Origin: an uncultured Bacilli bacterium
GTDB lineage: Bacteria > Bacillota_I > Bacilli_A > RF39 > UBA660
Assembly (NCBI GenBank): GCA_934153945.1
Contig: CAKPFM010000004.1
Span: 34,469-98,468, forward strand
Length of the DNA: 64,000 nucleotides
Reading direction: 5' to 3'
In this document: piece by piece, positions 19,156-64,000 of the stretch
Layout of the letters: each line of letters begins with the position of its first letter
Position numbering within the stretch: position 1 is the stretch's first letter
Translations under genes and position numbers: made by a program
The notes under the pieces: model-generated
What the model was told of the DNA's origin: nothing
Databases searched by the model: none
Seen by the model: only the letters and a program-made list of their open reading frames with translations

Positions 19156-19165
19156 GGGGGGGGGG
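19156..19165. repeat. G10 homopolymeric tract in the pilin-like gene promoter
   Basis: Ten consecutive G in a genome that is otherwise extremely AT-rich, about 50 bp upstream of the 19216 start. Confidence 0.9.
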
Positions 19166-19215: not shown

Positions 19216-20292
19216 ATGAAAAGAAAAGGATTTACGCTTGTGGAGTTATTAGCGGTAATAGTAATATTATCGGTAATAGCGTTAATCGCAACACCAATGA
19301 TATTAAACATAATAGAAGAAACCAAAAAAAGAAGCCTCGAAAATAGTGTTAAAGGACTATTAGAAGCATCAAATTATTTTGCAATAGAAAATAATGGAGT
19401 ATATGAATTTATATTTGATGAAACACATAAAGGAACAACAAAACAAGGAGAAAGATTAGATTATAAAGGAGAACTAGATGCAAAAGGAAAACTATATATA
19501 GATGAAGAAGGAGATATAAGTTTATGTGTATATAATGATAAATACTATGCATATAAAAATTATAATAGTGGAGTAATAATAGGAGAAAAAAGTAAAGATA
19601 ATTGTAATATAGATTATGATGGATTAACAAATAAGTATGTAGCTTACTTAGAAAGCGAAGGAATGAGTAGTAATGTATATACGAAAGAAGAAGTAAATGA
19701 ATTAGTTAGTAATTTAACAACAGAAATAAGTAGTTTAAAAAATAAAATTGAAGAATTAGAAAGCAATAATTATGCAACCAAGGAAGAATTAACAAATACA
19801 AGTGATAATTTAACAAATACAATTAATGAAAATAAAGCAAACATTGATAGTGTAAAAAATGGTTTAAATGAATATGCATTAAAAAGTGAATTAAGTAATA
19901 CAAATAATAATTTGATAACTACTAACAGTAATTTAGATGCTTTGACTAGTATTGTTAATAATAATAAATCTAATATAAATAATTTATCTACAAGCATTAA
20001 TAGTATAAAAGCACAAATTGGAACAAATTTTTATTCATTTAGTTATGATACCGGAGTACGTGGTTCAGAAATAACAAATGATATGATTATCAATGCATTA
20101 AAAATGGTTCCAGCCTCTTCAACATTTTTTGTTGTATATTTTAAATGTTTAGAAGGACAAAATGCTTCCTTAATTGGTTATAATTTGGGTAAGGAATATG
20201 GAACAGGATTATACTTTAATTACTATACTTCATCTTTAGTTTATAAATGGAAAAGTGAACTATATAATATAACATTAACTGAAGTTAAATAA
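19216..20292 (+). CDS. Prepilin-type (class III signal) N-terminal domain protein, paralog 1
   Basis: MKRKG|FTLVELLAVIVIL... with G-1/F+1/E+5 and a hydrophobic helix. AAGGAGA RBS. 358 aa, with an Asn-rich coiled region and a C-terminal globular part. Confidence 0.75.
   Translation: MKRKGFTLVELLAVIVILSVIALIATPMILNIIEETKKRSLENSVKGLLEASNYFAIENNGVYEFIFDETHKGTTKQGERLDYKGELDAKGKLYIDEEGDISLCVYNDKYYAYKNYNSGVIIGEKSKDNCNIDYDGLTNKYVAYLESEGMSSNVYTKEEVNELVSNLTTEISSLKNKIEELESNNYATKEELTNTSDNLTNTINENKANIDSVKNGLNEYALKSELSNTNNNLITTNSNLDALTSIVNNNKSNINNLSTSINSIKAQIGTNFYSFSYDTGVRGSEITNDMIINALKMVPASSTFFVVYFKCLEGQNASLIGYNLGKEYGTGLYFNYYTSSLVYKWKSELYNITLTEVK
19250..19319 (+). repeat. 70-nt segment that is near-identical (1 mismatch) to 62488-62557
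   Basis: By direct comparison, the 5' coding region of pilin-like paralogs 1 and 3 is almost the same. Confidence 0.85.
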
Positions 20293-51993: not shown

Positions 51994-52034
51994 TTAGCAC
52001 TCATACTTGACAAGTGCTAAAATAGTGGTATAAT
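51994..52034 (+). promoter_or_regulatory. clpB promoter overlapped by a CIRCE element
   Basis: TTAGCACTC-N9-AAGTGCTAA (51994-52020). TTGACA (52007-52012) lies inside the inverted repeat, then 16 nt, then TATAAT (52029-52034). Confidence 0.65.
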
Positions 52035-52073: not shown

Positions 52074-54182
52074 ATGAATATAGGAAATATTTATGATAAT
52101 CAAGAAGAAGATGTTTTAAGTAAATATGGACGTAATATTATAGAACTTGCTAAAGCGGGGAAAATTGATCCAGTTATTGGTAGGGATGAAGAAATAAGAA
52201 GTATTACAAGAGTTTTATCCCGTAAAACAAAAAATAATCCAGTACTAATAGGTGAAGCTGGAGTAGGTAAAACCGCTATAGTAGAAGGTTTAGCTTTACG
52301 TATCGTAAAAGGTGATGTACCAGAATCATTAAAAAATAAAACAATCTGGGAACTAGATATGGGTGCTTTAATAGCAGGAGCTAAATATAGAGGAGAATTT
52401 GAAGAAAGACTAAAAGCAGTACTAAAGAAAATAAAAGAATCAGATGGTAATATCATTATGTTTATTGATGAAATCCACATGATTGTTGGAAATAGTGCTG
52501 AAGGTAGTGTAGATACATCAAATATGTTAAAACCACTTCTAGCTAGGGGTGAAATAAAAGTAATTGGTGCTACCACATTAAATGAATATAGAAAATACAT
52601 AGAAAAAGATAGTGCTCTAGAAAGAAGATTTGAAAGAGTATTAGTAAATGCTCCAAGTGTTGAAGATACTATTACAATTTTAAGAGGTTTAAAACCAAGA
52701 TTTGAATTATTCCATGGAGTAACTATTAAAGATAAAGCATTAATAGCAGCAGCAACTTTATCAGATAGATATATAACAGATAGATTTTTACCAGATAAAG
52801 CAATTGATTTAGTAGATGAAGCTTGTGCTACTATAAAAGTTCAAATGGATTCAGTACCTTTTGAACTAGATAGTTTAACAAGAAAAATAATGGGACTTGA
52901 AATAGAATTAGAGGCAATCAAAAAAGATAAAGATGAAATGTCTAAAAAAAGAGTTTTAGCTATAAAAGATGAAGTAGCTATTTTAAGAAAAAAAGAACAA
53001 GAATTAAAAGGATCTTGGGAAGAAGAAAAGAAATTAAAAGAAACAATTAATAAAAAGAAAGATGAATTAGAAAGAAATAAGTTTTTACTTGAACAAGCTG
53101 AAAATAATTATGATTTAGAAACAGCAGCTCGTATTAAACATGGTGTAATACCTACTTTAGAACAAGAATTAGAAAATTTGAAAAAACAAGATAATTATAA
53201 ATTATTAAGTGATTCAGTAACAGAAGAAGATATAGCAAAAGTAATATCTAAAATGACAAATATTCCAATTCAAAAATTAGTAGGTGGAGAAAGAGAAAAA
53301 TTATTACATTTAAAAGAAAACATGGAAAAAAGAGTAATGGGTCAAGATGAAGCTATAAGTAAAGTAAGTTCAGCTATAATAAGAGCAAGAGCAGGTATTA
53401 AAGATCCAAATAGACCAATTGGTTCATTTATCTTTTTAGGTCCAACTGGAGTAGGTAAAACAGAAGTAGCTAAGACACTAGCAAGCGAACTATTTGATGA
53501 TGAAAGACACATTATAAGAATTGATATGAGTGAATACATGGAAGCTTACAATGTTTCAAGATTAATTGGTGCTCCTCCAGGATATGTAGGATATGATGAA
53601 GGTGGACAATTAACTGAAAAAGTAAGAAGAAATCCATATAGTATAGTTTTGTTTGATGAAATAGAAAAAGCCCATCCAGATGTATTTAATATATTGTTAC
53701 AAATACTAGATGATGGTAGAATAACTGATTCACAAGGTAGAACAGTAGACTTTAAAAATACGATTATTATAATGACATCTAATTTAGGTAGTGAATATAT
53801 TTTAGATAATAAAGAAAATAGTAATGAATTAGTAATGAATGAATTAAAACATACATTTAAACCAGAATTTATAAATCGTATAGATGAAATAATTATATTT
53901 AATCCATTAGCTAAAAAAGTAGTTTATAATATTGTTGATAAATTATTAAATGAATTAGAATTAAGATTAAAAGATAAATTAATTAAAATAGATATAACTG
54001 ATAAAGCTAAAGACTTTATTGTAGATAATGCTTATGATGAATCATTTGGTGCTAGACCTATAAAAAGATATATTGTAAGTAATATCGAAAACTTAATTGC
54101 AAGTAAAATAATTAATGATGAAATTAAATATAATAGTACTATTTTAATAGATATAGAAAATGATAAATTCATAATAAAATAA
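52074..54182 (+). CDS. clpB: ClpB-type AAA+ disaggregase lacking the N-terminal domain
   Basis: Two Walker A motifs ([18 protein letters not shown]), a long coiled-coil M-domain, and no ClpP-docking IGF loop. 702 aa, starting where canonical ClpB NBD1 begins. Confidence 0.8.
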
Positions 54183-61248: not shown

Positions 61249-61824
61249 ATGGATAAAGTATCAAAATTTGAAACAGAAATTAATTATATTAAAAATAAAA
61301 AATATCAAGATAATTTAAAGATATTAATAAATTTATTACCAGATTATTTCTTTAGTGTACAAGCATCTTCTACTGGTAAATATCATCCAGCTTTTACATT
61401 AGGTGAAGGCGGTTTAGTAAGACATACAAAAGCTGTAGTTAGAATTGCTTATGAATTATATAATGATGAATCAATTACAGGATGTTTTAATCAAGATGAA
61501 AAGGATTTAATGATAGTTGCTTTAGTTTTACATGATGGATTAAAACATGGGTTAGAAAAATCAGAATATGTAGTATTTGAACATCCACTTATTATGGGTG
61601 AATATATAAAAAATAATAAAGATAAATTAACATTAACTGATAATGAAATAGAATTTTTAGTCAATGTAATATCATCACATATGGGACCTTGGACTAAGGA
61701 TTATAAAGGAAATGAAGTATTACCAAAACCTGTAAACAAATACCAGAAATTTGTACATATGTGTGATTATTTAGCAAGTCGTAAGTTTTTAAATATTAAT
61801 TTTGAAAATGATGAGATAGTTTAG
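61249..61824 (+). CDS. HD-domain phosphohydrolase
   Basis: H...HD...H...D metal-binding pattern (VLHDGLKH). Confidence 0.65.
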   Translation: MDKVSKFETEINYIKNKKYQDNLKILINLLPDYFFSVQASSTGKYHPAFTLGEGGLVRHTKAVVRIAYELYNDESITGCFNQDEKDLMIVALVLHDGLKHGLEKSEYVVFEHPLIMGEYIKNNKDKLTLTDNEIEFLVNVISSHMGPWTKDYKGNEVLPKPVNKYQKFVHMCDYLASRKFLNINFENDEIV

Positions 61825-61855
61825 AAGAAATTATAAAGCGATTTCTTCTTTTTTT
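61823..61855 (+). terminator. Intrinsic terminator
   Basis: agaagaaat-N9-atttcttct followed by T6. Overlaps the 3' end of the convergent XRE gene. Confidence 0.55.
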
Positions 61856-62289
61856 CTACATATATCATTAATTGAAATGTTAAAATGTTTACAAAAAATG
61901 TATAGTACTGGTATTGAAATCATAATTTTACCTTTTTCATATTTATTAATACATGCTTGTGTTACACCAATTAGTTTTGCCATTTCTTCTTGTGATAAAT
62001 GATTTGAAATCCTGACATTTCTAATATTATTTCCTAATTCTTTTAGATCAATATTTCCAATACTATCTTTATTATCCTTACAATTTGATATATTTAAAAT
62101 GTAATCTATATTTATATTAAAATAATCCGAAAATTTACATAATGGCTTTAGTGGAATAATATTAATTCCGAGTTCCCACAAAGAGTACGTAGAACGACTA
62201 ACTTCCAAAATATTAGCCATTTGTTGTTGTGTTAAATCATGATCTTCTCTTATTTCTTTTATTTTTTTAAAATTTAACATCAATATCAC
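61831..62289 (-). CDS. XRE-family transcriptional regulator with two HTH domains
   Basis: Two HTH_XRE repeats: LTQQQMANILEVSRSTY and LSQEEMAKLIGVTQACI. Confidence 0.8.
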   Translation of the reverse strand: MILMLNFKKIKEIREDHDLTQQQMANILEVSRSTYSLWELGINIIPLKPLCKFSDYFNINIDYILNISNCKDNKDSIGNIDLKELGNNIRNVRISNHLSQEEMAKLIGVTQACINKYEKGKIMISIPVLYIFCKHFNISINDICRKKEEIAL

Positions 62290-62393
62290 CTATAATAATT
62301 GTTACACTTTAGATACAAAAAAAATGAAAATTGCTATTATGAGTTATAAAAAATACTATTTTGTGTTATAATTGAGATACAGTAGAGAATAGA

Positions 62394-62430
62394 TTATGTA
62401 TTTTAATAATTTTTCATTTAAAATACATAA
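62394..62430. promoter_or_regulatory. 13-bp perfect inverted repeat with an 11-nt spacer; candidate operator
   Basis: ttatgtattttaa-taatttttcat-ttaaaatacataa, located 24 nt upstream of the pilin-like gene RBS. Confidence 0.45.
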
Positions 62431-62453
62431 TAAGAGTAGTGAGGAGTTTTAAT

Positions 62454-64000
62454 ATGAAAAGAAAAGGATTTACGTTGATTGAACTACTAGCGGTAATAGT
62501 AATATTATCGGTAATAGCGTTAATCACAACACCAATGATATTAAACATAATAGAAGAGACAAGAAAGAAAGCATCAATAGAAAGTGTAAACGGAATATTA
62601 GATGCAGCAGAGAAATATGAAATAACAAGCATGTTAGAAGGAGAAGAAACAAGAAGGTTTGAGTTTCCAAATGAGAAATTACAATATAAAGGAACAAAAC
62701 CAGAAAGTGGAACACTAATAATAGATGAAGAAGGAAATACAAGTATAACAGTATTAATAAATGGATACTGTGTAAGAAAGAGATTTAATGAAACAACACC
62801 AAGTGTAATAGAAGAAAAAAATTGTACAATAGAAGATAGTGAATTAATATATGCAGAAAGATATAAAGAAGAAATATTAAATGGAGCATATCCAGAAATA
62901 AAGAATGAATTAATACCAGTAACAATAGAAAGTAATGGAACAGTAACATATGCAGATATAAGAAAAGAATGGTATAGTTATAAAAATAAGATATGGGCAA
63001 ATGCCGTAATATTAAAAGATAATGTAACACATAGTGTAGGAGAGGTAATACCAGAAAGTGATATAAAACAATATTATGTATGGATACCAAGATATAAATA
63101 TGAATTATGGAATGTAAATGGAGAAAATAAATATCCAAATGGAACAAGTTCAGAAAGTGCGATAAATATAGTATTTGAAAGTAAAGATAAAGAAACAAGT
63201 AATGGAACTGAAAATGGAGAATGGTTAACACATCCAGCGTTTACATCATTTAATACGAATGGAATATGGGTAGGAAAATATGAAACAAGTTATGATGAAG
63301 AAACATATACAGATTCAAGTAAGTTTCTAACTACAAATCCAAATTATGCAGCAGCTACAAATGCTTCAAATATAATAATAAAACCAAATGTAAGAAGTTT
63401 AACAAACAAAAAAGTAAGTGAATTTTATACATTAGGAAGAGGAATAAATGAAGGATTAAACTCACATATGATGAAAAATAGTGAATGGGGAGCAGTATCA
63501 TATTTAACATATTCATTATTCGGAAAATGTACAGAAACAGGATGTGAAGAAGTATATCTAAATAATATCAATACAGGGTATTTAAATAGTACAGCAACAT
63601 TTACAGGACAGTGGCAATATAGCGGAAGTATAACAGGATGTAGTGCATCAAGTACTTCGGCAACTGTAAATAGTAATCAATCATCATGTTCAAGTGGCTA
63701 TGCATATAATGAAGCAAATAATAAAGCAAGTACAACAGGAAACATAAGTGGAATCTATGATATGAGTGGAGGAAACTGGGAATATGTAATGGGAGTAATA
63801 AAAGATGCATCAGGTAATCCAATGAGTGGAATAAATAGTACATACAATTCAGGATTTAATGGAACATATGGATGTCCAACATGTAATAGTGATACATCAG
63901 GATTAACAAGTTTAACAACAGGAATAAATTTTCCAACAGATACAAGATATTATGATTTATATGCACCAAACTCAACAGAGTTAGGTGATGATACATGGTA
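62454..64000 (+). CDS. Prepilin-type N-terminal domain protein, paralog 3; runs off the 3' end of the window
   Basis: MKRKG|FTLIELLAVIVIL. GAGGAG RBS. More than 515 aa. Internal motifs WLTHPAF, GIWVGKYE, EWGAVSYL, GIYDMSGGNWEY. Confidence 0.75.
   Translation, partial: MKRKGFTLIELLAVIVILSVIALITTPMILNIIEETRKKASIESVNGILDAAEKYEITSMLEGEETRRFEFPNEKLQYKGTKPESGTLIIDEEGNTSITVLINGYCVRKRFNETTPSVIEEKNCTIEDSELIYAERYKEEILNGAYPEIKNELIPVTIESNGTVTYADIRKEWYSYKNKIWANAVILKDNVTHSVGEVIPESDIKQYYVWIPRYKYELWNVNGENKYPNGTSSESAINIVFESKDKETSNGTENGEWLTHPAFTSFNTNGIWVGKYETSYDEETYTDSSKFLTTNPNYAAATNASNIIIKPNVRSLTNKKVSEFYTLGRGINEGLNSHMMKNSEWGAVSYLTYSLFGKCTETGCEEVYLNNINTGYLNSTATFTGQWQYSGSITGCSASSTSATVNSNQSSCSSGYAYNEANNKASTTGNISGIYDMSGGNWEYVMGVIKDASGNPMSGINSTYNSGFNGTYGCPTCNSDTSGLTSLTTGINFPTDTRYYDLYAPNSTELGDDTW

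Follow-up and report, generated by a model that had tools for sequence, protein, structure and literature searches.

A predicted direct-repeat operator and a putative leader hairpin between a tandem helix-turn-helix XRE regulator gene and a divergent pilin-like gene of an uncultured gut Bacilli bacterium

The window analysed here is a stretch of 64,000 nucleotides (24.8% G+C) from an uncultured Bacilli bacterium (GenBank assembly GCA_934153945.1, contig CAKPFM010000004.1, positions 34,469 to 98,468 of the forward strand), and all positions below are counted from its first letter. Close to its end, a gene for an XRE regulator with two tandem helix-turn-helix (HTH) domains lies divergent from a gene for a pilin-like protein, the third of three paralogs, and a perfect inverted repeat stands between them. 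We consider it fairly likely, from sequence comparison, that the XRE operator is a pair of direct repeats lying over the pilin-like promoter and that the inverted repeat is a hairpin in the mRNA leader. An initial annotation had described a repressor-operator pair with the inverted repeat as the operator. The pairing of regulator and target in that proposal is supported by comparison, since the divergent arrangement and the operator-like repeats over the promoter of the facing gene recur in dozens of species, while the choice of the palindrome as operator is not.

The XRE gene and its predicted operator

The XRE gene (61831-62280, minus strand, stop codon included) encodes a protein of 149 aa according to the open reading frame list and Pfam. 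Its true start is most likely the ATG at 62280, because an AGGTGA ribosome-binding site (RBS; 62286-62291, minus strand) stands 5 nt before it and the other candidate, a GTG at 62289, is part of that site. With this start, the intergenic region measures 173 bp (62281-62453) instead of the 164 bp given at first. The two tandem HTH_XRE domains described for this minus-strand gene were confirmed, as the protein matches Pfam HTH_3 (PF01381) with 94.3 bits (cut-off 23) in two separate stretches, the best of which covers residues 86-139. The AlphaFold2 model of the protein (predicted local distance difference test 88.7, predicted template modelling score 0.79) contains two three-helix HTH units, with recognition helices at residues 29-37 and 108-115.

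Homologues of the XRE protein are numerous (422 at E <= 1e-5, many of them 55-68% identical), and in an alignment of 19 of them (55-81% identity) the recognition helices are invariant at R29, S30, Y32, S33, L34, W35 and E36 and at V106, Q108, C110, Y114 and E115. The protein shares the features of a grouping defined in this analysis, the tandem-HTH XRE family of uncultured gut Bacilli, namely a length of ~143-153 aa, two HTH domains and no other domain, and RSTYSLWE and TQACI..YE helices. Since the recognition helices are fixed across the family, one conserved operator is expected.

Upstream sequences of the XRE gene were collected from 80 genome loci and from contigs of closer relatives, giving 45 distinct sequences for alignment (XRE homologues 44-81% identical). 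The strongest conserved element consists of two tandem 22-bp direct repeats, TTATAAC-N4-AATAGCA, at offsets -91 and -69 from the XRE ATG, each unit being composed of the sub-sites ATAAC and ATAGC placed 10 bp apart. In the orientation of XRE, conservation is seen in the blocks aaATTATAACAcAAAATAGCA, aAaAt and ATAACT.AaAATAGCAaatt, followed by aAATG.gAAAATtAa and then by the RBS taGGTGaT; the distal block of the family alignment reads ATTATAACAcAAAATAGCA and ends 5 nt before ATAACT.AaAATAGCA. The side of the direct repeats that faces the divergent gene, hereafter the cargo gene, is unconserved across the 45 sequences.

In the window, predicted operator unit 1 is TTATAACTCATAATAGCAATTT (62328-62349, minus strand), an exact match to TATAACNNNNAATAGCA, and predicted operator unit 2 is TTATAACACAAAATAGTATTTT (62350-62371, minus strand). 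They lie 69 and 91 bp from the XRE ATG, which are the offsets of the family and are shared with 50 of 78 genome loci. A position weight matrix (PWM) was built from 80 units of 44 other lineages, with the window left out of training. It scores unit 1 at 26.0 bits and unit 2 at 19.3 bits, the best and second-best values in the 64 kb, the third-best being 8.4 bits. A pattern search for the operator gave 13 matches in the window against 8.7 expected, and only the two local units stand out. Across the 78 genome loci, 114 PWM units fall within 170 bp upstream of an XRE gene, on the XRE strand and ~91 and ~69 bp from its ATG, with only 12 at other places in the 556 kb.

The direct repeats also extend over the -35 and -10 of the divergent promoter, because the distal unit ends in an extended -10 on the opposite strand with a Shine-Dalgarno sequence and an ATG downstream of it. 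The family form of this extended -10, TGTGTTATAAT, is the opposite strand of the distal unit (reverse complement ATTATAACAc), and most relatives have the Shine-Dalgarno sequence and the cargo ATG 28-45 nt after it. The extended -10 of the pilin-like promoter in the window is TGTTATAAT (62364-62372, plus strand), with gTGTTATAAT conserved in the 45 sequences and a predicted transcription start site (TSS) near 62379. Unit 1 overlaps the -35 region of this promoter, and unit 2 overlaps its extended -10.

Among all the genes at these loci, the XRE gene is the only one that always accompanies the direct-repeat element, while the divergent neighbour and the flanks change from one locus to another. 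Co-occurrence, position and conservation together indicate that the direct repeats at 62328-62371 are very probably the XRE operator. Two points weaken this assignment: the positional count uses loci of the same kind as those that trained the PWM, although the window itself was excluded from training, and another factor could in principle bind the direct repeats, although no other gene co-occurs with them.

A candidate extended -10 of the XRE promoter, TGTAACAAT (62298-62306, minus strand; family consensus TG-n-GAAAAT), can be tentatively assigned. It is part of a block, AATG(G/T)GAAAAT(T)A (62298-62312, minus strand), which lies ~20 nt upstream of the XRE RBS in the 45 relatives and could be the extended -10 of XRE or a further regulatory site. 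We also noted three direct-repeat units instead of two upstream of XRE at L036, L048 and L067, and two adjacent copies of the tandem-HTH XRE gene at L013, L025 and L043.

The proposed mechanism would work as follows. The XRE protein, which has no sensor or oligomerisation domain, would span one 22-bp unit as a single molecule, and its two non-identical HTH domains would enter successive major grooves on the ATAAC and ATAGC of that unit. Two XRE molecules on adjacent units would then repress the cargo gene by blocking the -35 and -10 elements of its promoter. Coupled autoregulation of XRE is probable, given the rigid spacing from the XRE start and the TG-n-GAAAAT block. In this genus, the cargo of the divergent promoter is pilin-like paralog 3, and the leader hairpin would act after transcription initiation, either on mRNA stability or on ribosome access and translation initiation.

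The inverted repeat in the predicted pilin-like leader

The inverted repeat consists of two perfect 14-bp arms, ATTATGTATTTTAA (62393-62406) and TTAAAATACATAAT (62418-62431), separated by an 11-nt spacer. The perfect match and the spacing had been described correctly, and the arms, first given as 13 bp, are one base pair longer. Shuffling the window 40 times with its dinucleotides preserved gave 0.05 perfect repeats per 64 kb (arms of 14 bp or more, loop no longer than 30 nt), and the real sequence has two; the second one, like most of the 12-13-bp repeats in the window, lies at a gene 3' end, where terminators are expected. As described at the outset, the repeat is located just upstream of the pilin-like RBS, with 9 nt between its end and the Shine-Dalgarno sequence GAGGAG (62441-62446, plus strand, 7 nt 5' of the ATG, read from the sequence). 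It sits 21-59 bp downstream of the conserved extended -10. Because the TGnTATAAT at 62364-62372 puts the TSS near 62379, the repeat is expected to lie in the transcribed leader, spanning about +15 to +53 of the pilin-like transcript, where 62393-62431 (plus strand) reads as a 5' untranslated region (5'-UTR) stem-loop with a 14-bp stem and an 11-nt loop.

Several observations could speak for the palindrome as an XRE operator, which would be bound by the protein as a dimer or pseudo-dimer and repress the pilin-like gene. It is perfect and far beyond chance, it lies between divergent genes near the pilin-like start, its TATGTA/TACATA half-sites are conserved in three lineages, and on either strand it coincides with weak promoter-like hexamers (plus, TTAATA-17-CATAAT; minus, TTTAAA-18-CATAAT). 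However, it is missing upstream of XRE in 44 other lineages despite their near-invariant recognition helices, so it does not accompany the regulator across orthologues. It is also unlike the family element (its arms score at most -8.7 bits with the PWM, rank 533 in the window) and lies downstream of the conserved promoter. A search of the whole window for the half-site with at most two mismatches gave 16 matches against 17.7 expected, with no signal of a regulon. Nor are half-site sequence and spacing conserved together: the hexamers TATGTA and TACATA are kept, and the gap between them changes from 23 to 26 to 14 nt, while in lineage L091 the arms mismatch as DNA and pair through G-U as RNA. 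The overlapping hexamers, for their part, are not conserved in L091 and L092, and such pairs turn up often in AT-rich sequence like this (17 found, 8.6 expected). The palindrome is very probably not the XRE operator, and we regard the contrary proposal as very improbable. This bears on the choice of experiment, as an electrophoretic mobility shift assay on the palindrome alone would probably be negative and lead to the wrong conclusion that XRE does not control the gene. A likeness of 11 of 14 positions between a palindrome arm and ATTATGAGTTATAA in operator unit 1 was rejected, as it falls at non-conserved operator positions and the PWM shows no real match.

The same promoter-scan matches on both strands could mean that the palindrome holds a proximal pilin-like promoter (TTAATA-17-CATAAT, TSS near 62438), its symmetry being incidental or that of a bidirectional promoter. 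This is extremely improbable: each match scores 9/12 and, as said, is of a common and unconserved kind, with a TSS at 62438 only ~3 nt would remain ahead of the Shine-Dalgarno sequence, and the upstream extended -10 is the one conserved in 45 sequences.

The hairpin was found at the same place in three lineages only, all with pilin-like cargo, namely the window species, L091 (XRE 81% identical) and the L092 group (XRE 68% identical). The 44 lineages that lack it have other cargo and leaders too short to hold it. In L091 it reads TATGTGTTTTTTAA-9 nt-TTAAAAAAATGCATA, and in the L092 group GTATGTA-A-TT-9 nt-AA-TACATAC. As DNA, the L091 arms have two mismatches and one indel, two positions pair as U-G and G-U in the sense RNA only, and matching T and A runs have been gained. 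At the foot of the stem, one compensatory change turns the T-A of the window into G-C in L092. Across three lineages, these compensatory and wobble changes weakly suggest that pairing is preserved on the transcribed strand. The spacing of hairpin, 9 nt and Shine-Dalgarno sequence is conserved in the three lineages together with a GTAGT-rGGAgG block. The intergenic regions of same-species contigs (L001-L010, L198-L203) are identical or nearly so, and are uninformative on conservation; contigs carrying P0012 stop at the XRE start.

Folding energies were compared for the two strands. The window hairpin folds at -11.2 kcal/mol as RNA (z = -3.4), while the whole 97-nt leader has a z-score of only -1.96. 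Sense and antisense energies are -11.2 and -10.3 kcal/mol in the window, -9.0 and -4.8 in L091 and -7.6 and -5.5 in L092, so the sense RNA folds better in all three. An RNA stem-loop fits these data better than a protein-binding palindrome, because the stem length and half-site spacing are variable and the changes include G-U wobbles, matched indels and a compensatory pair. A function of the palindrome as an RNA hairpin in the 5'-UTR is slightly favoured on these grounds. The initial annotation had itself named a purely mRNA-hairpin role of the repeat as a finding that would speak against its model, and as far as sequence analysis goes the data agree with such a role. Three points count against the hairpin. 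The covariation is thin, with one compensatory pair, two wobbles and matched indels among three carrier lineages; the conserved outer stem TATGTA/TACATA could reflect protein recognition at the DNA or RNA level; and the hairpin starts ~15 nt from the predicted 5' end, unlike classical 5' stabilisers, which stand at the end of the transcript.

The palindrome might instead be the DNA site of another dimeric regulator, serving as a roadblock or a second layer of control independent of XRE. The outer half-sites are conserved and the element is wholly invariant in the L092 group, and a CIRCE-like palindrome elsewhere in the window implies that palindromic operators are used in this genome. Against this, the variable spacing and arm length do not suit a rigid dimer, the half-site has no second copy in 64 kb, no candidate regulator gene co-occurs with the palindrome, and the difference in folding between the two strands of L091 speaks for RNA; we hold such a site to be unlikely. 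The CIRCE-like palindrome, TTAGCACTC-N9-AAGTGCTAA (51994-52020), lies upstream of a clpB-like gene (52074-54182), and its spacer holds TTGACA (52007-52012), with TATAAT 16 nt downstream (52029-52034). It is one mismatch from the HrcA operator consensus, and it looks like a heat-shock operator on clpB.

A palindrome without regulatory role is the last alternative, in which the repeat would be a neutral remnant of the segment of ~50 bp that lengthened the leader, such as an insertion scar or a product of replication slippage. The pilin-like leader is indeed ~50 nt longer than in most relatives (20-30 nt in the family as a rule), and the stem is almost purely A-U, with a modest energy and, for the entire leader, the low z-score given above. 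However, the three lineages keep the hairpin, by way of matched indels, at a constant distance from the Shine-Dalgarno sequence, although their XRE proteins share only 68-81% identity. In the seven intergenic variants of the L092 group, moreover, its 30 nt carry no substitution, while the neighbouring spacer between the -10 and the hairpin varies. A neutral origin is distinctly unlikely in our judgement.

We also considered and rejected several more specific readings of the region. An intrinsic (Rho-independent) terminator or attenuator is not supported, as the stem is not G+C-rich (one G-C pair, the rest A-U) and no U-tract follows, there being no T-run after the stem on either strand; a terminator scan of 61700-62600 returned no terminator-like site. 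The Rfam 15 covariance models gave no match at E <= 1 on either strand of 61700-62700. An upstream open reading frame of 18 codons (62396-62452, MYFNNFSFKIHNKSSEEF) begins within the left arm and ends 1 nt short of the pilin-like ATG; L091 and L092 do not conserve it. It was rejected because the corresponding ATG of L092 runs straight into TAA, the L091 equivalent is in frame with the gene, and no convincing Shine-Dalgarno sequence is present. In L091, the gene caller had stretched the pilin-like gene to the ATG equivalent to this start, which is a miscalled start. A resemblance of the loop to a CodY box, about 9/15 by eye, was dismissed as a coincidence of AT-rich DNA.

Variable cargo and the pilin-like paralogs

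The XRE regulator family is widespread in uncultured Bacilli of human and animal guts. Identical copies of the XRE/pilin locus were found in human gut metagenomes, Hadza samples among them, and related loci occur in metagenome-assembled genomes labelled as uncultured Bacilli, Tenericutes or 'Mycoplasma sp. CAG:611/776/956', which are probably Bacilli of the RF39/RFN20 type. The cargo behind the divergent promoter varies by species (L011-L090). At ~22 loci it is a ~90-100-aa protein of a KPxxFQKKKLKxY family without Pfam match, and elsewhere it is a pilin-like protein or transmembrane-anchored homologues of its C-terminal domain (L027, L036, L048), a glycine-rich ALK_LTK_GRD protein (L050, L058, L059), or one of various membrane proteins, some of them small. 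Three loci (L014, L015, L038) have a common downstream flank and different cargo, and the synteny of hemN-like and HD genes with XRE is confined to this genus. When metagenomes were searched with the C-terminal domain of the pilin-like protein, 80 loci were obtained; outside the genus, none of them has the XRE operator or the hairpin upstream, and the search thus brought no further hairpin lineage.

The regulator had been thought to be dedicated to paralog 3, and this does not hold in evolution, where the cargo gene differs between species. According to the sequence comparison, the XRE gene and its promoter form an old regulator-plus-promoter unit whose cargo varies by species. A bolder and doubtful proposal is that the XRE gene and its operator/promoter form a conserved 'expression socket' in uncultured gut Bacilli of the 'Mycoplasma sp. 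CAG' type, into which different genes, many of them for surface, secreted or membrane proteins, would be swapped. If so, in this genus the socket beside the poly-G phase-variable promoters of near-identical pilin-like paralogs would give two independent switches of surface variation, with the leader hairpin added in some lineages to adjust how strongly the socket is expressed.

In the window, the cargo gene is pilin-like paralog 3, which starts at the ATG at 62454 (plus strand) and runs off the window at 64000; in same-species contigs its product has 596 aa (L001). Its N-terminus, MKRKGFTLIELLAVIVILSV, matches Pfam N_methyl (PF07963) with 30.6 bits (cut-off 21.2) and has the G-F-T-L-x-E hydrophobic helix, and besides this methylation motif the protein has a large C-terminal surface domain. 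The three N_methyl paralogs are alike only over the first ~130 residues (36-47% identity). The three paralogs and the G-tract upstream of paralog 1 had been described before and are confirmed, the tract being a G10 run (19156-19165) in the promoter region of paralog 1 (gene 19216-20292). Homologous tracts measure G7 in L001, where the tract precedes the second pilin-like copy, G9 in L092, L095 and L098, and G10 in L147, a variation in length that is typical of slipped-strand phase variation, to judge from the sequences. At L098, a homologue 74% identical to the paralog-3 protein lies behind a G9 promoter, not an XRE promoter, so the same gene type occurs behind either kind of promoter. The proposal that the paralogs are differently regulated is thus supported as a description, with poly-G or XRE promoters before the same gene type, and very probably wrong in where it put the operator of paralog 3.

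Several further observations concern the pilin-like genes. In L001 and L002, a tandem second pilin-like gene (598 aa, N-terminal two-thirds near-identical) follows directly after the XRE-controlled 596-aa gene and has its own poly-G promoter (L001 6014-9827), and other strains have a single copy (L003, L004). Many assemblies break in or just before this gene (L005-L010, L178-L180), a sign of sequence that may be repeat-driven or vary between strains. Gut metagenomes (L101-L177) widely contain the ~460-aa C-terminal domain of paralog 3, fused to varied N-termini, such as pilin-type GFTLIELL, plain transmembrane helices, and signal-like ...SYAYW/GGTLAYW segments, which resemble SipW-type signals. 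The paralog-3-type domain in L027 (2041-3885) has a sub-threshold similarity to FGE-sulfatase (17.7 bits, cut-off 23.3).

Comparison with known regulatory systems

The architecture as a whole, an XRE repressor over a divergent promoter with a leader hairpin, is ordinary. For the hairpin, the Bacillus subtilis aprE and ermC leaders are the nearest comparison, 5'-UTR stem-loops that stabilise Gram-positive mRNAs. Like them, the window hairpin is a simple leader hairpin upstream of the Shine-Dalgarno sequence, with no U-tract and no conserved loop; the aprE/ermC-type stabilisers lie within a few nt of the 5' end, whereas the predicted start of the window hairpin is ~+15.

Searches of the PDB by sequence and by fold with the XRE protein returned single-domain relatives only: C.BclI, C.AhdI, ClgR and HipB by fold, and PezA by sequence. 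The C proteins of restriction-modification systems (C.BclI 2b5a, C.AhdI 1y7y, C.Esp1396I) are the best single-domain structural matches, each HTH domain of the XRE model superposing at a root-mean-square deviation of 1.2-2.0 A, and C.BclI is the second-best PDB sequence match. The operator of C proteins has two adjacent units beside a promoter. However, C proteins are single-domain homodimers on pseudo-palindromic boxes, the match spans ~60 of the 149 XRE residues, and no restriction-modification genes are present here.

Two XRE-type HTH domains in a short protein are also found in repressors from phages, among them phiCDKH01_17 (Clostridioides difficile phage) and the 'repressor' of Streptococcus phage Javan433; phiCDKH01_17 is reported to bind a regulatory region and to control the promoters there (PMC11172241). 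Repressors of the Javan433 type cover 93% of the XRE query at 27% identity. The phage two-HTH repressors are at most 27-36% identical to XRE and control lysis-lysogeny genes, whereas the XRE gene of the window has housekeeping genes around it (hemN-like, HD, clpB) and is divergent from a gene for a surface protein; the likeness described here is that of the proteins. A phage origin of the XRE unit was rejected in view of this low identity and of the single full-length XRE relative among 2.9 million viral contigs.

A divergent repressor with multiple operators over its target promoter is the classical layout of Cro/CI of phage lambda and of Xre of Bacillus subtilis PBSX. As in these systems, a small HTH_3 protein is divergent from its target, several adjacent operators lie over the target promoter, and autoregulation is likely. 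In contrast to the Cro/CI type, the window protein has two non-identical HTH domains per chain and no oligomerisation or sensor domain, its presumed operator consists of tandem direct repeats of a composite 16-17-bp unit instead of palindromes, and the system is chromosomal, not phage-borne. What is new within this known kind is a presumed direct-repeat operator matched to a two-domain monomer, together with the variability of the cargo. The phylogenetically footprinted operator of two 22-bp direct repeats fits the two-domain protein and could be used to predict targets of the family in hundreds of metagenome-assembled genomes.

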